64,000 nucleotides of DNA from a virus (IMGVR_UViG_3300042975_000100:32001-96000), one strand, 5' to 3'; shown: positions 4,642 to 45,736, counted from the stretch's first letter. Translations and numbers: made by a program. Notes: generated by a model not told the origin, from the letters alone.

Positions 4642-5123
4642 TGGAAATCACGACAAAGAAAGTTAATATGTATGCAGCCAGCCCGACGACTGTCGGATTT
4701 GGTATTCCTAGAGTTGGAAATCTGAGAGGCATTACTATGACGGTAGCTGACATTCGTCAGGCTCTGCGTAGCCATGCACATATCGAGGAGATCATGGACG
4801 ATGGCCGTTTGGTTCCGCTCGATTTCTCGAACTTTGACAAAGACAATTCTGTTGCCAGCGAACTGACGCAGGCAGCTCCGGTTGTAAGCATTGTTACTCC
4901 GCTTGGTGAGCAGACTCCGATCGATGTCGCTAAGAAAGCAGAAGCTGCTAAAGCTGCTGCAGAGGCTGCAAAACCTGAGACGACTGTAGAGGTTCATGAG
5001 CCGCCGGCTTGTGATCCGTTTGCCGATGTAGCTGCTGATGCTAAGAAAGCAGAAGCAACTGTTACAAAGGTAGAGGAAGAGAAGAAAGCTGACGACAAGA
5101 CGGCTGATTCGAAGAAAAAATAA
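4641..5123 (+). CDS. Hypothetical protein with Ala/Lys/Glu-rich tail
   Basis: RBS ggagg, translational coupling to the upstream gene, terminator downstream. Confidence 0.7.
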   Translation: MEITTKKVNMYAASPTTVGFGIPRVGNLRGITMTVADIRQALRSHAHIEEIMDDGRLVPLDFSNFDKDNSVASELTQAAPVVSIVTPLGEQTPIDVAKKAEAAKAAAEAAKPETTVEVHEPPACDPFADVAADAKKAEATVTKVEEEKKADDKTADSKKK

Positions 5124-11454: not shown

Positions 11455-13145
11455 TTATAACGTCAAAAGATTAGTGTATGGGATATTACCATTACCAAGG
11501 GTATTGATGCCTACTTCATCAGTTGGGAATCCTTTAAGATTATCATTAATGATATTATCGTAATCAATAAATCTAATGATCCATTCAGGAATAGGATCGC
11601 CAAACTGAATAGCTATTGAAGTGATTCCAGCTTTATACTCTTTAGCAGAAAGAAGTTCTACTGCTTTTTTATACATAGCAGGATCATCGTTCTTGATATC
11701 TTCTACTGTTTTCTTATCAAGTTTAGTCTTAATAATCAGAAGACTATTTCTCTTCTCAAGATCGATAGGATCGGAATCTACAGGGCGTAAGGTGTTATAT
11801 GCATATGCTGCTTTTATACCCTGAATTCTCATTGGCATTGCATATGAAGTCATTGGTTTGATCCGTGCTGGTTTATGATAAGTGGTTTCACCGCTCACCA
11901 GAGATTTGAAAATCTTCTTTTCCAGTACAGCCAAGCTGTTAAGAATCTTCATCTGATCCACACCAGTCTCAGAATCAAGAATCTCTTCAAAGAGAATTCT
12001 CTTAAGCTCATCAGCAGTTGACTTAGGTGTACCGGCTTTATCCAATTCCAATCCTGTTACCGATAATGCTGCACTCTTAGGAACCATGTTTCCTTCCTGA
12101 ACCAATGTATTAGCAGCATAATGTTTCTTTACATACGTAAGAAGGATGGACTTAAACAGGAATTCATTCTTCATAATTAATAAGCATTTTCTTCCAGGAC
12201 TGGAGGAATAATGTTTATCGCAGAAGTTACGCATGTAATCGAGAATAAGCTGACTGATGGTATATGACATAATATCTATAATCGAGCATCTGAGTCCATC
12301 TTGTGGAATAAGCTTTAGCGGTTCTACCGCACGATGAGTAGCTACAAGCTTATCGTTATAGAAATCATAGTCATAATCAAAGTCGATTAATTCCACTACC
12401 TTCTTTTTAGGCATATCTCCAAACTCATCAGCTTCTATGAGTTTAATGATATCATACTTCTGGTGCTTGATAGCCATATCAATTCCCTTAGTTTTTTCTG
12501 CTAAGAACTGATACCATGCTTCAAGAGAGATTATGCAAGAATCTGTATCTACGATCAACACTGTATCTCTCGGCATAGTCTCTATGCGATCAAGCTTATC
12601 CAAAGTGATATACTCGTAATACACATATTCTTTTACCCATGCTAAGAAGATATTCATATGATCTTTAATCTCTTCTGGAACCTTATTAGGATTCAAGAAT
12701 GGAGTTTTTAAGGTCATAAGCATAGAGACAAGAAATGAATTTACCTTTTTATTTTCACAGAACTCAAACAGATTATTCTTGTAATAGATTCTGTTCAAAT
12801 CTTCCTGTGATACTCGGCTAAGCATATCCCAGATTATCATGGCTTCCTTCTCACTCGGAACCCACATATAACCGGTTGTTGCCATTATCTTATAGAAACA
12901 CTTCGTAAGACTTATATTCTCATCGATGATATCATTGTCATTAAGCTTTCTTATTGCTTTTTCCATTCTGATATTATCGATGAATGTTACTACCTCATCC
13001 AGAGAACCAAACTGAACATTATTCGCTAAGAATGATTCAAAGAATGTAATTGATGCCGAGATAATACTCTTACCCATAGTTGTAATACTCGGCGCTACAT
13101 GTAAATTGAAGAACACCGAAGACGGTGCCCCGAACGTTCCATATA
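11455..13145 (-). CDS. Family B DNA polymerase, motif B/C half, exon 2
   Basis: Begins (L)YGTFG; contains motif C VDTDS and the KKHYA segment. Confidence 0.9.
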
Positions 13146-13550
13146 CGAAATCTTAAGATAGGTCTACTGTGGATATCCACTCATTACCTATCCCTCTATT
13201 GCTAGAGCTTGATCTTTTCGATCAATGTCGAGACTATATCTTCAACTCTAGATTCCTCTAGAGCTGGGTGGCACTTTCAACCCGTTTGGGCCGTACTTCC
13301 TTTCGGAATAGTCGTTGAACCTTCAAAAAATGTAATCTTTGAATTTGATACTGATTACAATTTAAGCTTGGCTGCTGATTGCCCATTGTACAAAGCACTT
13401 AGAGTTACTATCCCCATATGCTATCTTATAGTTTGTTTCTGCATTTCGCGACCTTTATAAGGTACTATAAGCTTTAGGACTTCCCAGCAATTCACTCACC
13501 TTTTCGACGACCCTCGCGAGCCGAAGGACCTATTGCTCTTTCGAACGTCA
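13146..13550 (-). mobile_element. Group I self-splicing intron (405 nt, no homing endonuclease ORF)
   Basis: Core elements P aattgctgggaa, Q aatcagcagc, R gttcaacgacta, S aagatatagtct; 5' exon ends in U and intron ends in G; removal restores KIDMNGLYG in frame. Confidence 0.93.
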
Positions 13551-13986
13551 AGCCATTCATATCAATCTTTGCTAACAACTGCAGCAGATTGTATTTGTTA
13601 AACATCTCCGTACCTTTAGGATACTTGAACATCTCATTCTTGTATTTGGTACGTAAGTCTGCAAGACTTTCAATGAAGTTATAGTATGGGTTTACTACAT
13701 CTCCATGTCTTGCAAAGAGAACACCATATGCAGTGATGATCGGCTTTTTACTAGATATATAATCCACCATCTGCTTAAGTGTCGATGTAACCTCTTTGTT
13801 TTTGTAGTTATTCAAGAGAGTGCAATCTGCATCCTTGAATCTCTTTTCCATAGAGAAGTCTATCACCTTTGCGATTTCATCTTCCAATAAAGATGGAAAT
13901 GCAAGTTTAAGACTTCGCATCATGACGTTTTTGTACTCTTTAAGCGGGTCGTCATCCCGCAGCCCAAGATTAAATAGTTCAGCCAT
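13551..13986 (-). CDS. Family B DNA polymerase, motif B/C half, exon 1
   Basis: Ends in the motif B start QLLAKIDMNG; exons total 436+1691=2127 nt (708 aa). Confidence 0.9.
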
Positions 13987-39710: not shown

Positions 39711-40058
39711 TTATATTTTGTTACGACCTTCTACATTACGTTTGGTTCTATCTGCTGTTCTAGCATCAAGAAATTTAATAGCGTTGTTAATAGAATTGAG
39801 AGCATCGCTATTATATGTACAAGCAAAGGGACTTTTCTGGAAATTCTCTAAGCGATATTTAACAATCTCTAAGAGATCCCTTTCAGATAACCCATTCTCT
39901 CCAACTTCTTTGATCGGACCCTGCTGAAAGTCTACATTGCCGATAGTCTGGTTCTCAGAACCCTTTACAACAAAGTGATGGTAGTTATTATATGCTTTAC
40001 TATCTTCATGCACAATGGTATGATTTCCGACGTTGTAATTCATTTTAATCTGTTCCAT
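39711..40058 (-). CDS. tad1: Tad1-family immune-signal sponge (anti-Thoeris/CBASS)
   Basis: YHH...FQQGPIKE.GENG....DLLEIV..RL..FQ.SPF.C..N..AL.......R..DR..RNVEG matches the recalled Tad1 consensus. Confidence 0.85.
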   Translation of the reverse strand: MEQIKMNYNVGNHTIVHEDSKAYNNYHHFVVKGSENQTIGNVDFQQGPIKEVGENGLSERDLLEIVKYRLENFQKSPFACTYNSDALNSINNAIKFLDARTADRTKRNVEGRNKI

Positions 40059-40082
40059 TTTGTTATTTCTCCTTTAATAGAT

Positions 40083-40604
40083 TTAGGGTTTCATAGTCCC
40101 TTTAACCTGTCTTACTTCTCTATCTTTATTGCGCTTCTCTATTGATTTCAAAGCACCCTTGATATAGATCATCGCTTCATCCGTTTCTTTACAACGAAGA
40201 TTAGTCTTCTGGAATGCTTGCATCCTCAAAAGCACAGCAGACAACAGTTCTTCATTGGTTACCCCATTAACCTTATCAGATCCATGCTGAAAATTTATAG
40301 TCTGGATAACCTCTCCAGACTTTGCATCACAGATAACGAACTGACCGTCTTTGTCAGTCTTTATAACAGCCGTTACATCATCAGAATGAATAGATCTAAG
40401 CTCATCTATCATATCATTCTTCAGCTCTTTGATTTCAGCTTCGATGTCTGTATAGGATATAAGCTTCTTGCAATCATCGCAGATCGTAAGAAGAAAATCA
40501 TGATTCATATTGTCTTTATCGGTTACTGTGAACAAGATATCAAACGTATGCTTGTGTTTACATTTGTTGCTGTGTCTAAGCATAGCTATAATCTTATCTA
40601 TCAT
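40083..40604 (-). CDS. Divergent Tad1-like protein with N-terminal Cys/His extension
   Basis: C-terminal INFQHG...NGVTNEELL.....R...FQ....C.E...A......R..DR..R.V.GT; N-terminal CKHKH...CDDC. Confidence 0.7.
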   Translation of the reverse strand: MIDKIIAMLRHSNKCKHKHTFDILFTVTDKDNMNHDFLLTICDDCKKLISYTDIEAEIKELKNDMIDELRSIHSDDVTAVIKTDKDGQFVICDAKSGEVIQTINFQHGSDKVNGVTNEELLSAVLLRMQAFQKTNLRCKETDEAMIYIKGALKSIEKRNKDREVRQVKGTMKP

Positions 40605-40701: not shown

Positions 40702-41658
40702 ATGAAAAAGAAAGAAGTTATGCATCTCGTTCCTGAAAAAAATGAGAAGCGCGAAGATAGTGGATTTGGATTTAATGCATCTTCATTGGTTGGAGATGGA
40801 GACGCTCTTCCTGCATTAGAAACCAATGAGCCGGCTAAAAAGAAGAGAGGCCGTCCACGTAAAGAAGATAATGGTGATGGATTCACTGTAGCTAAAAAAG
40901 CTGATCCGAATCCTATCAATTCTGATATGCCTTACGATCAAACGTATAAACAGAATATGATGATGATGTCTGGTACAGTTGCTCAGATCGATGGTCTGAG
41001 TTCACAACTTATGCAGGATCTTGGAGCTGTACGTAACTTACGTAATAGCTTTAAGAAGTATGAGTATATGGGAACAATCGCAGGAGCAGTTACTAGTCTT
41101 ATCGGTAATAAGATCAGCGCTGTGCGAGAGATGAACAGCGTTATCACAAAGTGCCATGACCTTGAGCTTAAGCGTGCTAAGGAGCTTAAAGCCGGAGTGG
41201 ATGACGGTGATGATGATAAGAGACTCATGGATCTCTACTCTGCATTTATCAACAATCCGATGGGTAACCCTGGAGCGAGCATGCCATATGCTAATGTATC
41301 TCAGGCTGATCTTATGTCTGTTGGTGCTAGAGCAAATACCACGAATCTGTTCTCACAGAATGAAGACCCGGGATTTACTCGCTATGAACAGAATCTTACC
41401 CCTCAGCAGAATGCAATGCTGAATGAGGGCAATCCGAACATTGAGACTGTTCTTGTATATGATCAGAGCACACAGGATAAGTATTTTGAGGTAATCGATA
41501 AGAGTACCGGAATGCCTATTCCTAATATGCCTACACCTGGAGAGTTTATCCTTGAAGGATGCGTGCCAGATGTAGTACGTGGCATTGCACGTAACTCAGA
41601 CTTCAATCAGAACTTCCCATTGAAGCTCGTTGGACAACGGGCAGCAAACGAGTATTAA
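40702..41658 (+). CDS. AT-hook-containing coiled-coil protein
   Basis: KKKRGRPRK AT-hook; late promoter at 40664; N-terminal KKEVMHLV motif. Confidence 0.65.
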   Translation: MKKKEVMHLVPEKNEKREDSGFGFNASSLVGDGDALPALETNEPAKKKRGRPRKEDNGDGFTVAKKADPNPINSDMPYDQTYKQNMMMMSGTVAQIDGLSSQLMQDLGAVRNLRNSFKKYEYMGTIAGAVTSLIGNKISAVREMNSVITKCHDLELKRAKELKAGVDDGDDDKRLMDLYSAFINNPMGNPGASMPYANVSQADLMSVGARANTTNLFSQNEDPGFTRYEQNLTPQQNAMLNEGNPNIETVLVYDQSTQDKYFEVIDKSTGMPIPNMPTPGEFILEGCVPDVVRGIARNSDFNQNFPLKLVGQRAANEY

Positions 41659-41754
41659 TTAAAACACACAGTAAAGGAGAGAGCCAATGCGGCTCTCTCC
41701 AATATTGTGTTACGACAGAAATAAAAACCGTTTACAACGGCATTCATAAATATT

Positions 41755-42196
41755 TATGCTGGTATGACTGCTTAGGGAAGAAACCCATGCTTGACTCACT
41801 GGCAAAAACCTTAATCTAAGATTTTATAATTGGATTGTGATGATTAACTTTTAAGATCTTAAGTCTACTGGATTAACAAAAAGTTTAACGGCTTAATAGC
41901 TTAATGATAATTGATTAAATCTTAATGATTATCTCTTCATCTTAATTTTAATCAGAACTGGGACTCGAACCCAGAGAGTGACATAGAGTATCTATGCCAT
42001 GCGTTTACCAATTCCGCCATCCTGCTTAAAGTATGTAGATTTTTGGATCATCTACAATGCTATCTTTGTTTGATAGTTTTGCTTTTTGTTTTTGATTCAA
42101 CTGATCAAAAGTTAAGCGATAGCTTTTGTTTTGTACGGTAAAAGCTATCGAAAGACCGCTGAGCCTTTTCTTGGATTTTTACATCATATCAGCAAT
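41755..42196 (-). ncRNA. Putative large structured RNA containing a tRNA-like domain
   Basis: ORF-free region; the ends can pair (tgctgatatga / tcataccagca and aaaaatc / ggttttt); internal hairpins; TTAA/TTAAG-repeat tract. Confidence 0.65.
41951..42026 (-). other. tRNA-like domain (non-canonical, no CCA, aberrant anticodon arm)
   Basis: D arm tggcggaattggtaaacgc; T arm ctggg-ttcgagt-cccag; acceptor agcagga/ttctgat; 9-bp stem with 3-nt loop replacing the anticodon arm. Confidence 0.8.
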
Positions 42197-42204
42197 GATA
42201 CTTA

Positions 42205-42873
42205 TCAATATTCGATTTCAATCTCCGTGATCTCAGTCATATGACCAAGAGCAGCGTCAATGTTCACCAGATAGGTATCGATTGCCTCTGCGGCATTTTT
42301 CATCTTCTTAGTGATCTCAGCCGGATCAAGAAGATCTACCTTGTACTGTGCATTCAGCTCAGCCTCACGATTAGCGCGCTGAGTCGACGATGCATTCGTA
42401 GTATTGCCGAATTCGTTGTTAACACGCTCGACAATGTAACGATCAGTTTCTTTGACACGCTTGGTATACATCTTGGATACTGAACTAACGCCATTGGTGA
42501 TAGTACGCATGATGCTCGTAAGTTCATTCTTGTAGTAGTTCTTACGAGCGATAGCAGCAGCGAATGAAAGCGATTCTTTCTCATCGCCATTGATATCGTC
42601 GAACGACTTGAACTTCGGTACTTCGATGTACGTCTTTGCATTTGCATTGAGGATAGCATTTGCAATGGCTTCACGGCGAATGATCTTATCGTTCAGGGAC
42701 TGCCAACGAGCTTTAGCGTCAGCTTCCCAGTCTTCAACAGAGAGACCATTGATGATCTTCTCGGTATTGTCTTTTGTTGTGGTAAATGCTTTCATAGAAG
42801 CAGAATCAATCTGCTTATCGAGCATCTTCTTCTGCGCGAGCGCAGCTCTGAGTGTCATGGTTTCTTTTACCAT
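42205..42873 (-). CDS. Coiled-coil protein of the DIP1984-like family
   Basis: MTL..AL...K.LD..I, I..ANA.T, S.A.AI.R, L.DP and ID..L...T.IEIEY patterns; RBS ggagg. Confidence 0.65.
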   Translation of the reverse strand: MVKETMTLRAALAQKKMLDKQIDSASMKAFTTTKDNTEKIINGLSVEDWEADAKARWQSLNDKIIRREAIANAILNANAKTYIEVPKFKSFDDINGDEKESLSFAAAIARKNYYKNELTSIMRTITNGVSSVSKMYTKRVKETDRYIVERVNNEFGNTTNASSTQRANREAELNAQYKVDLLDPAEITKKMKNAAEAIDTYLVNIDAALGHMTEITEIEIEY

Positions 42874-43027
42874 TTTACATTCCTCCAATTTAATGATTAA
42901 TAGCTTAACCTTTGCTACTATAGTGTATATGCTGTGATAAATTATTACATTTTTTCGTTATCATAATCAGACGATTAGACATTTTGTTAAAACCAAAATA
43001 TTATATGTTGAAAGGCTGTGTTTTTAA

Positions 43028-43678
43028 ATGAGTGCACCAAATTCGAATGGCGTATTACGCACTAAACTATCAGATATGAAAATCGGGGATTATATCAAGT
43101 GGCAGTATAATGGTGGGTCTGATACTGCTATTGGAACTTTAAAGGCTGACGATGGCACAGAAAACGAATTACCATCTACTCCTTTAGCTACTGGAATTAC
43201 AGGGTATTTCTACTTCATAAAGTGGAAGCAGGGATTACTAGTAGCAGATAGAGCCATTCATCTCAATATATCGGCCCAGATGATTAATAAAGCTGGCTAT
43301 TTTAAAGGCAGTCAGTATTTTTGTCCATCTTTAGACCAGTTCCAAGCATTCTGCGCCGATGATTTTAACGGCAATTTCAAATTTAGCGATGCTAATTTTC
43401 CAATAGCGACCGAATCCATTGGTGGTGGTGTGGGTCCGAACACACTTAAAGGAAGGCCCATTACTCAAGATCTAAAAATCGTTAGAGAGTCGGGATCTGG
43501 GTATATAACCAATATTATGGATAAGATAAGATATGATACTACTAATTACATAGGATTTACACAACGACAGAACAATCTTAGCAGTGTTGGATCAACATAC
43601 CCTATATTTCTTCCGACGTATTTCTTACCTTGCATGGCATATGTGGACAATTCAAAATCAACAAATATCTATTATTAA
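43028..43678 (+). CDS. Tail/receptor-binding-associated protein (single LVADR domain)
   Basis: MKIGDYI...GYFYFIK...LVADR....IS...IN.AG, related to the repeats of the next gene. Confidence 0.55.
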   Translation: MSAPNSNGVLRTKLSDMKIGDYIKWQYNGGSDTAIGTLKADDGTENELPSTPLATGITGYFYFIKWKQGLLVADRAIHLNISAQMINKAGYFKGSQYFCPSLDQFQAFCADDFNGNFKFSDANFPIATESIGGGVGPNTLKGRPITQDLKIVRESGSGYITNIMDKIRYDTTNYIGFTQRQNNLSSVGSTYPIFLPTYFLPCMAYVDNSKSTNIYY

Positions 43679-43687
43679 GGAAATTAG

Positions 43688-45736
43688 GTGATTAACTTGG
43701 CTGATATAACTTCACTAACTAAAGTGACAGACCCATACAATATCCAACCTGGCCAATACATTACCTGCGATTATACAACTACGGCTGCAAATACTCTAGG
43801 AACTTTTAGTAACCTTGGCAAAGCTACTAAAGATCTTTTAGCAACTCCTCTTACAGGAGCAGGTGAAGGTTCTTTTAACTTTATCTGTATCGGATGGGAC
43901 TATGCGGGTAGACCTTATCTTATCGCTGATAGAGTTATTCAGACTAGCTTTAGCTTATCAAGCAATTCAGCTTTGAACACTACCTCTGGTACTACGGCTA
44001 CGATCGACAGTTCGGTATCAGTTAACTTGCGTGTACTCAACAGAGACACATGGGATAAGGCAGTTGTAAAAGGCGGAGTGACTGGTATAGCTGCTGGTGA
44101 TGCATTATGGAATTTCTCTATCCCATCATGGACATTTGAACTTCCATCGGATAGCACCGATGGAACGGCGAATTATATCCTTGGTGGTGCAGCTGTCGAT
44201 ACGATTGCTACAAAAGCAATTAGCACCGCAGATGCAACAGTAGGATACCGTCCTGTAATGACCATCAATTCAAAGCCAGCATATCGCGGTAATCCTGGTC
44301 TTGCTGCAGGCATTACGCTTGTGACAGATCCAGTCAAATTAGTTCCTGGTACGGCTATCTCATGTGAGTATACCGTAACTACTAAGGGAGCTATCGGAAC
44401 ATATGCAAATCTTGGTAAGGCTACCAAAGATCCTTTACCAGATTACCCAGTAGATCTTCCAGATGGAACATTCTACTGGATCTGCGTTGGTTATACTCCA
44501 GCCGGATATCCGAAGTGCTTTGCCGATAGAAACATTCAGGCAAACATTTCATGGTCGACTTTGGCCACTGCAGCGCTTACCACTACCTCTGGTACTGAAA
44601 CTACAGTTAGCGGCCACAAATGCAATTTACGCATTCCTAATTCCATCCCAAATAGGCACATCAGCATCCCAGATTCTAAGTATGGAGAGTGGGATGCAAT
44701 CTTTACTACTTATAATGCTAATGGTATTAAAGCAAGTAATGAAGTATGGAATACTAAATTCTCACAATCTTTTACAACGGCTATTCTGTCTGATGTAGAT
44801 GATGCTGGTAATCTTGCAGATGGTACTTATATCATTGCTAGAGGTTATCAGGATGGAACTGATGGAGTATATCAGGATAAAGAGGATGTACAGACTAAGT
44901 ACACTCAGTCTCAGACACTCTCTAACGTAGGTTTCCGTCCTGTATTTATCTATACAGAGATCGATGCTAACTCAAGAGGTAAAGTAGGAACTACGCTTCC
45001 ATCTTTCGACTTTAAACCAGGAACGTATGTACAACCTGGTGAGGTTATTCCTTGTACCTATACGGTTACAACTAAAGGAGCTCTTGGCAAGTTTACTGAA
45101 TTTGGCGGAAAGTCCGACAAAGATTGGATCTTGGCTGAAGGTGAAGATCTTCCAGATGGGCGCTTTAACTTTATCTGTGTAGGATATACACCGGATGGTT
45201 GTGCTAAGTTAGTAGCCGATAGAAACATTCAGACGAATATTTCTTGGACTACGCTTAACAATGCTGGGCTTTGTCTCACTACCGGTAGTGATGTTCCTGT
45301 AGATGGAACTAACTGGAAGATGAGATTGTTCAACACTACCACTACCAGATTCGTATCTGAAACTGATTATGGTGAATGGGATGCTATCATTAGTCTTATG
45401 ACTAGAGCTGGTATTACTAAGCCATCAGATCCAGAGATATGGAACTGTGGTAATAACCGTAGTTGGACGCTTGCTACCATTGCTACTATCGATGATGCTG
45501 GTACTCTTGGAACACAGGATAACTGTATTGCTAGAGGCGTGCAGGATACTGCATTCAATATCAAGGATGCAAGCTTTACGAAGCAGCCTTTCCAAAGCGC
45601 TGCATATGCTTCTAAGACTATCGGCTTTAGACCAGTAATGTGGTTCAAACAGAAACCTGTATCAAGCACTAACCCTTATCGTGCATTCGTACGTATTGAG
45701 GATGATGCTTTGTTCGCAAATCAGAATTTCTTCTAA
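43688..45736 (+). CDS. Putative tail protein with three tandem about 220-aa domains
   Basis: Three repeats of PG..I.C.YT....G.F.FIC.G....ADR.IQ...WD...WN...G[FY]RPV. Confidence 0.7.
   Translation: MINLADITSLTKVTDPYNIQPGQYITCDYTTTAANTLGTFSNLGKATKDLLATPLTGAGEGSFNFICIGWDYAGRPYLIADRVIQTSFSLSSNSALNTTSGTTATIDSSVSVNLRVLNRDTWDKAVVKGGVTGIAAGDALWNFSIPSWTFELPSDSTDGTANYILGGAAVDTIATKAISTADATVGYRPVMTINSKPAYRGNPGLAAGITLVTDPVKLVPGTAISCEYTVTTKGAIGTYANLGKATKDPLPDYPVDLPDGTFYWICVGYTPAGYPKCFADRNIQANISWSTLATAALTTTSGTETTVSGHKCNLRIPNSIPNRHISIPDSKYGEWDAIFTTYNANGIKASNEVWNTKFSQSFTTAILSDVDDAGNLADGTYIIARGYQDGTDGVYQDKEDVQTKYTQSQTLSNVGFRPVFIYTEIDANSRGKVGTTLPSFDFKPGTYVQPGEVIPCTYTVTTKGALGKFTEFGGKSDKDWILAEGEDLPDGRFNFICVGYTPDGCAKLVADRNIQTNISWTTLNNAGLCLTTGSDVPVDGTNWKMRLFNTTTTRFVSETDYGEWDAIISLMTRAGITKPSDPEIWNCGNNRSWTLATIATIDDAGTLGTQDNCIARGVQDTAFNIKDASFTKQPFQSAAYASKTIGFRPVMWFKQKPVSSTNPYRAFVRIEDDALFANQNFF

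Follow-up and report, generated by a model that had tools for sequence, protein, structure and literature searches.

A gene for a 222-residue helical protein and, directly behind it, a non-coding RNA of 438 nucleotides (nt) very likely form one module in the viral DNA analysed here, a stretch of 64,000 nt (hereafter the window) that corresponds to bases 32001–96000 of the 144,787-base IMG/VR virus record IMGVR_UViG_3300042975_000100. Coordinates are counted from the first base of the window, and features lie on the minus strand unless stated otherwise. The gene (42205–42873; start codon ATG at 42873–42871, stop codon at 42205–42207) is preceded by a GGAGG ribosome-binding site (42882–42886), and the RNA (41757–42194, from the first to the last base of its closing helix) begins 10 nt after the stop codon. 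Comparison of homologous loci strongly supports a conserved structured RNA that is tied to the upstream gene, and it is plausible that the RNA and the protein, its candidate partner, form a ribonucleoprotein.

The 448 nt behind the gene (41757–42204) contain no open reading frame (ORF) of more than 37 residues on either strand, which bears out the ORF-free stretch that an earlier note on the window had placed behind a coiled-coil gene. Coding under a different genetic code was considered and dropped, as the repeat tract described below is full of stop words in all frames. The ends of the RNA were set in 19 distinct homologous loci, where the RNAs measure 340–500 nt, and the sequences were aligned (alignment A2, 686 columns). 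The outermost helix, P1 (5′ strand 42184–42194, 3′ strand 41757–41767), closes the whole RNA and is aligned over 13 pairs; a second helix of five pairs, PA (5′ strand 41816–41820, 3′ strand 41771–41775), closes the 3′ domain. Across the 19 loci, 93.6% of the alignment cells of the two helices hold standard pairs (92.3% for P1 and 96.8% for PA), and sliding the 3′ partner by 1–3 columns lowers this proportion to 26–53%. Double-sided (compensatory) changes are found in 16 of the 18 pairs, 12 of 13 in P1 and 4 of 5 in PA, and none of 500 shuffles reached any of the observed measures. About 28 cells of P1 and PA are G-U, which would read as A-C on the opposite strand; therefore, the structure belongs to the sense strand.

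The unconstrained minimum-free-energy fold of the window RNA (−105.4 kcal/mol, z = −5.03, with none of 100 shuffles as stable) forms P1 together with two further long-range helices, P2 and P3. The pairing of the two ends, which the earlier note had suggested by eye, is thus present in the unconstrained fold and covaries, and the comparison of the regions downstream of homologs that it had recommended returned a closing helix that is both conserved and covarying. Automated procedures were less informative: RNAalifold run on MAFFT alignments recovered PA alone, single-sequence constrained folds were too noisy for comparison, and duplex folding over long windows was too permissive. At the DNA level, the region had no match among 50,697 phage records.

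Helix P2 (5′ strand 42173–42178, 3′ strand 41781–41786) links the segment directly after P1 to the bases that immediately precede the 3′ strand of PA. Helix P3 (5′ strand 42160–42165, 3′ strand 41793–41798) begins about 15 nt further on and uses as its partner the loop of a small hairpin, PB (41788–41804). The strands of both helices differ from clade to clade: the two partner segments of P2 shift jointly in each clade, and those of P3 are clade-specific and show compensatory changes relative to the closest relative, locus L003. In a test on 18 RNAs, the 24 nt after P1 were combined with the 26 nt before the 3′ strand of PA, and the cognate duplex was compared with 17 non-cognate duplexes. The cognate combination was the best of all in 13 RNAs and was second to one non-cognate combination in the other five, where the single better partner was probably a sister sequence. 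The 3′ strands of P2 and P3 are located inside PA and their 5′ strands outside it; the core is therefore read as a double pseudoknot, and we regard the RNA and its knot as established by the comparative evidence. A different partner for this part of the RNA had been proposed earlier, namely pairing of the A-run after the first helix with the U-run at 41804–41810. This pairing was dropped since the U-run is invariant even in clades with a quite different 5′ segment, and no covariation connects the two, whereas the comparative data pair 42173–42178 with 41781–41786. The U-run and the PB hairpin that follows it (41788–41810 together) differ in conservation, with the U-run kept in all clades and the PB stems variable between them.

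The association of the RNA with the gene was examined over a broad set of loci. Thirteen homologs of the partner protein, with 36–99% identity, were retrieved from 5.8 billion proteins, and their contigs were compared together with 12 IMG/VR loci, four loci from bacterial genomes (Veillonella and Gemella), Bacillus phage BCP8-2 and a human-gut phage clone. The IMG/VR relatives came from an alignment-based scan; single-protein and exact-word scans of viral contigs returned no relative. At all of these loci the gene is immediately followed by at least 420 nt devoid of genes, and in 15 of 19 loci the RNA starts 6–14 nt after the stop codon. The surroundings, by contrast, vary from locus to locus and include DNA polymerase III alpha, deoxynucleoside monophosphate kinase, methylases, small ORFs, tail-fibre-like genes and tRNA arrays. 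A covariance model of the 3′ domain, R1, built on the last 95 nt of the RNA, gave exactly one match per locus over 206 kb, always behind the gene and on the same strand. Matches were also obtained outside the set from which R1 was built (67 bits in the Gemella locus L034, and 54 and 48 bits in the Veillonella loci L033 and L032), and the model matched once in the genome of the window itself and once in each of the four bacterial genomes. In total, the RNA was located behind the protein gene by the model in 27 of 28 loci and by eye in the remaining one. Among 121 Veillonellaceae genomes, the RNA occurs in three, and the protein occurs in the same three.

A more distant relative is found in phage T5, where a profile of the 13 proteins matched T5.085 (43505–44143, minus strand; E = 2.3e-12), a gene that is annotated as a tail fiber protein and lies among early genes. 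The 360 nt behind T5.085 are unannotated and, by reading, contain a closing helix of 13 bp, a helix resembling PA, and heptads rich in A. Model R1 gave no match in T5 or in locus L030, and the Rfam model RAGATH-27 (RF03100) gave none in T5, in BCP8-2 or in any locus of the clade of the window. For the RNA, the link to T5 is thus architectural only, and for the pair it is drawn from the protein profile and the shared layout. About 2 kb from the T5.085 module, and separate from the unannotated gap behind that gene, T5 has a 719-nt feature annotated as ‘RNAX, stable RNA with unknown functions’ (T5 40848–41566; L047 349–1067) beside tRNA-Arg.

Between the variable region and PA, the window RNA contains a repeat tract of 111 nt (41821–41931) with about 15 units of 7–8 nt built on the word UAAKC. 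The tract is 78% A+U and 8% G, and a conserved A-rich junction at its end lies beside PA. The periodicity is evident from the unit spacings (7, 8, 13 and 14 nt) and from the autocorrelation, which has maxima at offsets of 7, 14, 21 and 28 nt (z = 11.6, 8.6, 5.3 and 4.1, respectively) with shoulders at 8, 15 and 22 nt. The tract of repeated words that had been noticed earlier is therefore real and periodic. Tandem Repeats Finder reported no repeats in it, because the heptads are too degenerate, and autocorrelation was used instead. In 15 of 16 close relatives the tract measures 103–114 nt, with 5–11% G and 74–89% A+U. The repeat word changes with the clade of the upstream protein, from UAAKC in the clade of the window to words of the UCAAAG type in the gut clone (L002) and in BCP8-2, and to yet others in L016 and L030.

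Repeats of this kind could in principle be protein-binding sites on DNA, and the whole element could be a DNA-level feature (iterons or an origin) or the decaying remnant of a tRNA array, its RNA-like features being incidental. tRNA genes do flank the module in several phages, and the tRNA-like piece of the window RNA, described below, is non-canonical. We nevertheless regard such an origin as very improbable: four long-range helices carry compensatory changes, the frequent G-U pairs would turn into A-C mismatches if the opposite strand were read, the architecture is kept in very distant relatives, and the 7–8 nt spacing of the units does not match the helical repeat of DNA.

The layout of the locus would fit a single transcription unit. 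Sixteen nucleotides past the RNA lies a terminator-like hairpin with a U-run (41727–41741), followed by a second, stronger terminator that reads in both directions (41676–41700), and relatives likewise have a terminator-like hairpin shortly after the RNA. Co-transcription of gene and RNA from a promoter at 42917–42930 had been proposed; the short gap and the terminator fit the proposed co-transcription, but the named promoter is not the best match to the consensus. The same arrangement could describe a cis-acting 3′ untranslated region (UTR) that stabilises the upstream mRNA, or that feeds back on translation when the protein binds its own message. At most loci the RNA begins 6–14 nt past the stop codon, which leaves no space for a promoter of its own, and a terminator follows it. 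A double pseudoknot of 340–500 nt with 15 repeats and tRNA-shaped arms, however, exceeds the needs of known 3′ stabilisers, and in the loci of the L019–L029 group the RNA is followed by tRNA arrays instead of a terminator, which suggests processing into a separate stable RNA. A purely regulatory UTR is, on this balance, improbable.

The partner protein itself matches phrog_1491 over its full length (residues 4–221, E = 1e-25; profile match). The name of that family, ‘tail fiber protein’, is probably an inherited mis-annotation: the gene is located among early or replication genes and tRNAs, and no tail-fibre fold was found for the protein by fold comparison. Pfam and NCBIfam gave no family match for the window protein or for any of its 13 homologs at E values up to 1, and no match to a curated DIP1984-like or 3KDQ-like family model was obtained for the same proteins at the same cutoff. 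The AlphaFold2 model, which is confident with a predicted local distance difference test score (pLDDT) of 90.7, consists of long helices with small sheets at the ends. Its top structural match is 3kdq_A, a C. diphtheriae protein with no assigned function, which aligns over 150 of 152 residues with a root-mean-square deviation of 7.3 Å and a Z score of 11.6, the next entry scoring 7.6; for helical bundles, a Z below about 13, as here, is not conclusive. Foldseek also ranked 3KDQ first (probability 1.00, E = 0.014). For the modelled protein, a 3KDQ-like fold is thus confirmed at the level of the fold only. The earlier note had likened the protein to the DIP1984-like family, and this resemblance stands in so far as the fold resembles that of 3KDQ, putatively locus DIP1984, but it does not extend to a family match in Pfam or NCBIfam.

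The protein is also predicted to self-associate, as the co-folding models support. When four copies were folded together, the self-association score was 0.61, compared to 0.01 for the best of three controls. In a calibration set, 20 of the 30 proteins whose structures were solved as pairs of one chain scored at least this high, as did 1 of the 23 solved as single chains, although these counts are only a rough guide here, since four copies and an alignment made for this analysis were used, unlike in the calibration set. At least 83% of contacts are shared between runs, with a partner pLDDT of at least 84, and one copy contacts two others by way of different faces, an arrangement like that of a chain or ring. 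The likeness to 3KDQ, a solved oligomer, could contribute to the score. Across the homologs, six Lys/Arg residues and three aromatic residues are invariant.

Taken together, these observations are best explained, in our view, by a model that we hold to be somewhat more likely than not, in which gene and RNA constitute one module, the protein assembles on the heptads, and the target of the complex may be linked to tRNA. In this model, the gene and the 438-nt RNA would be one transcription unit and one functional module, the RNA being the 3′ part of the transcript of the gene. The first 35 nt and the last 65 nt of the RNA are joined by the nested long-range helices P1, P2 and P3, which cross the local helix PA and draw in the PB loop. 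The knotted core would present a single-stranded, G-poor loop of fixed length with about 15 heptad units and, in addition, a variable arm, which is tRNA-shaped in the phage of the window. The helical-bundle protein, with its predicted side-by-side packing through two faces, would assemble along the row of heptads, perhaps as one protomer or one dimer for every one or two units. The product would be a particle of defined size for which the tract serves as a ruler, and which might, as a guess, act on tRNA-handling or translation-linked machinery of the host or the phage. What the analysis shows directly is the RNA with its helices and periodic tract, the permuted tRNA-like modules and the strict linkage of gene and RNA; from these we infer co-transcription, protein–RNA binding, stoichiometry and target. 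Binding of several protomers to the tract, as put forward in the earlier note, is plausible given the strict co-occurrence of gene and RNA, the constant length of the tract, its clade-specific word and the predicted self-association, and loading of the protein onto the heptads would be the simplest account of the linkage, the tract length, the word and the oligomer.

Several points weigh against this model. The protein is near neutral (isoelectric point 5.4–8.7, net charge −4 to +3) and not basic, and no RNA-binding domain is recognisable in it with Pfam or NCBIfam. Conserved gene order alone would fit a purely cis-acting 3′ UTR. The support for P2 and P3 consists of duplex-energy contrasts and reading, not of an alignment-based covariation test. 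A fourth Veillonellaceae genome (L043 786–1118) encodes a weak, partial relative of the protein (E = 4.9e-6) with no RNA behind it, the gene being followed by a terminator and an ordinary metabolic gene; judged by this locus, cellular relatives of the partner protein therefore exist without the RNA. In addition, the comparable phage RNAs ROOL and GOLLD function with no protein partner known for them (bioRxiv 10.1101/2024.12.08.627333).

The last point raises the prospect that the RNA acts alone in the manner of ROOL and GOLLD, for example as a self-assembling multimer, and that the gene is only a conserved operon neighbour or encodes a factor for assembly or stability with no binding to the heptads. 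The ornate, pseudoknotted fold and a context shared with those RNAs (phages, tRNA islands, and tRNAs in the linker region) would agree with this, as would a protein that is neither basic nor equipped with an RNA-binding domain. It is difficult to reconcile with the strict adjacency of gene and RNA over protein identities from about 25% to 99% and through changing neighbourhoods, with a repeat word that shifts with the protein clade, and with a fixed-length, single-stranded tract so poor in G, which is ill-suited to RNA–RNA contacts. Action of the RNA by itself is accordingly considered unlikely, if less so than a purely regulatory UTR, and assembly of the protein on the RNA remains the preferred interpretation.

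The variable arm of the window RNA contains a tRNA-like module in normal order (41950–42026), which matches the Rfam tRNA model (RF00005) with 30.7 bits (E = 5.6e-4; gathering score 29) in a local scan, the match being absent from whole-window and whole-genome scans. The module has a class-II-type D arm, a canonical T arm, one acceptor mismatch and no CCA. Its anticodon arm is extended and includes an 11-nt loop region, unaligned by the model, that is able to form an 8-bp stem capped by a 5-nt loop. Flanking pairs (42027–42031 with 41945–41949) prolong the acceptor helix. The module thus departs from a tRNA with a 7-nt anticodon loop containing U33, a free acceptor end and a 3′ end that could receive CCA. 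ARAGORN finds no tRNA in the module. In view of the loop, the acceptor mismatch, the flanking helix and the negative ARAGORN result, the element is, as judged from its sequence, a tRNA-like module and not a tRNA gene; the embedded tRNA-like domain described in the earlier note is nonetheless recovered above the gathering score. No tRNA gene at E = 0.001 or better was found in the whole virus record, which is about 58% complete, although related modules lie in tRNA islands. In L003, all four cloverleaf arms of the corresponding module are kept by compensatory changes, and ARAGORN calls a tRNA there.

A second topology is found in L006/L018, L007 and L016. There the T arm comes first, followed by the 3′ strand of the acceptor, a short loop, the 5′ strand of the acceptor, the D arm and the anticodon arm, and the module is wholly enclosed by a covarying helix at the position of the variable arm. 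When the two halves were swapped by index, with no letter changed, ARAGORN called complete cloverleaves in L006, L007 and L016, compared to none in the native order. From this result, the modules of L006/L018, L007 and L016 are read as circularly permuted tRNA-like modules whose acceptor end is closed. RNAalifold recovered no structure for three of the tRNA-like modules because they were misaligned. Two features lie near the L006 module: downstream of the RNA, about 2.4 kb (L006 5097–7580) contain neither a called gene nor a tRNA recognised by ARAGORN, and upstream there is a gene with a weak reverse-transcriptase match (L006 1502–2560).

More than half of the RNAs (L009, L011, L013/14, L019–L029, L024 and BCP8-2) have only plain hairpins at the site of the module; the tRNA-like module is therefore accessory and cannot be the core of the system. 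A role of the tRNA mimic as a decoy or in RNA repair, which the earlier note had put forward, is speculation and one possibility among several, and the core module does not require it. In L009 (about 5060–5090), and at the same place in L025, a lone T-arm-like hairpin occurs about 50 nt past the end of the RNA, and the RNAs of both loci have no tRNA-like module. A broader link of the system to tRNA biology is circumstantial. It is suggested by neighbouring tRNA islands, with 18 tRNA genes directly upstream of the gene in BCP8-2 and tRNA arrays directly downstream of the RNA in L019–L029, and by tRNA-shaped arms in two topologies; the pair adjoins such islands and carries such inserts, which is why we guess that the particle most likely acts on tRNA-handling or translation-linked machinery.

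The remaining elements of the window RNA are hairpins, and those named in the earlier note are indeed present. H1 (42117–42150), an 11-bp hairpin of the 5′ domain preceded by a conserved G/U-rich word, is maintained by compensatory changes in L003. H2 (42092–42108) was read by eye. Two further hairpins in the variable region (42060–42076 and 42034–42056; 42034–42076 overall) are apparent from the sequence and the fold, are not conserved in relatives, and are thus lineage-specific.

Elsewhere in the window, a group I catalytic intron was identified at 13208–13584 on the minus strand (Rfam, 66.4 bits; gathering score 50). It lies between or within two minus-strand ORFs (11455–13116 and 13492–13986) that probably represent an intron-split gene. 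Divergent from the partner-protein gene, two adjacent plus-strand genes (43028–45736) encode proteins of 216 and 682 residues that both match phrog_30895; in the larger, one domain apparently occurs as three internal repeats, and a role as a receptor-binding or fibre protein may be suspected. Neighbouring minus-strand paralogs of 115 and 173 residues (39711–40604) both match phrog_2428, which has no assigned function.

Large structured RNAs of unknown function are, to our knowledge, rare, and this one comes with a candidate protein partner and a clear, testable architecture. Copies are carried by cultured phages, namely Bacillus phage BCP8-2 and its relatives, as well as T5, where the gene is probably mislabelled as a tail fiber protein and the candidate RNA behind it is unannotated. 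Natural circularly permuted tRNA-like modules are also documented here inside phage RNA.

Comparison with Rfam gives an orphan motif a larger context. RAGATH-19 (RF03096), a candidate small RNA of 141 positions with a gathering score of 85.6 bits, matched L019, L022 and L028 with 115, 116 and 53 bits, respectively, and did not match the window RNA either at E values up to 10 or at gathering thresholds. In the sister clade, RAGATH-19 lies inside the homologous RNA, where it spans the hairpins of the 5′ domain and stops at the first repeat unit; H1 and H2 of the window RNA correspond in position to its first and second hairpins in the alignment with L019. The model does not include P1, P2, P3, PA, PB or the repeat tract. 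The window and L019/L022 share the P1 and PA columns, the P2/P3 scheme and the tract length, and their upstream proteins are 46–47% identical, so that the window RNA is, on comparative grounds, homologous to the RNAs that carry RAGATH-19, and the orphan motif is shown to be a fragment of a much larger RNA. No paper of the library searched was found to mention RAGATH-19, the text of the 2017 survey does not discuss it, and literature searches on DIP1984, T5.085 and the T5 stable RNAs returned nothing useful.

Other known RNAs offer partial parallels. Like bacterial Y RNA (YrlA), which is associated with Ro60, the RNA has ends that pair in a stem and an internal tRNA mimic with a closed acceptor end. 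In contrast to the YrlA/Ro60 system, the partner protein is not Ro60-like by fold, and the RNA contains a repeat tract and exceeds Y RNA in size by a factor of three to four. The best YrlA match was to the permuted module of L018 only (30.9 bits, E = 0.007; gathering score 69), and identification as a Y RNA was rejected on this sub-threshold match, with no search made for a nearby TROVE (Ro60) gene. Transfer-messenger RNA (tmRNA), including its permuted form, was likewise rejected (16–24 bits on the permuted modules against a threshold of 47, and no tmRNA reported by ARAGORN), as was RNase P RNA, for which no model matched above threshold. The repeat tract recalls RNAs that load many copies of one protein onto repeated words, such as the trp leader bound by TRAP and the CsrB and RsmZ RNAs bound by CsrA. 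As in those targets, a row of short, evenly spaced single-stranded words would suit an oligomeric reader, although the words, the spacing and the proteins are unrelated, and in the present case binding is only proposed.

A further resemblance is to ROOL and GOLLD, which are phage-borne, often located beside tRNA islands and highly pseudoknotted, with tRNAs sometimes present in the linker of GOLLD (bioRxiv 10.1101/2024.12.08.627333). The RNA described here shares with them the phage context, the tRNA islands, a tRNA-shaped insert, pseudoknots and a function that is not established. It differs in being much smaller and in having a dedicated protein gene and a heptad tract, neither of which is described for ROOL or GOLLD in that paper, and the Rfam models of both RNAs gave no match in the window or in ten related loci. 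A third class of ornate RNA thereby joins the unexplained tie between phage tRNA islands and large non-coding RNAs. In its most specific form, which we offer tentatively and rate at somewhat less than an even chance, our proposal is that gene and RNA specify a phage ribonucleoprotein that is widespread and so far undescribed. About 15 heptads would set the fixed size of a homo-oligomer, and a double pseudoknot would clamp it; the particle would in some lineages bear a tRNA-shaped arm attached through the acceptor stem or at the variable-arm position, and would engage tRNA-handling machinery as a protein-bearing counterpart of the ROOL and GOLLD nanocages.

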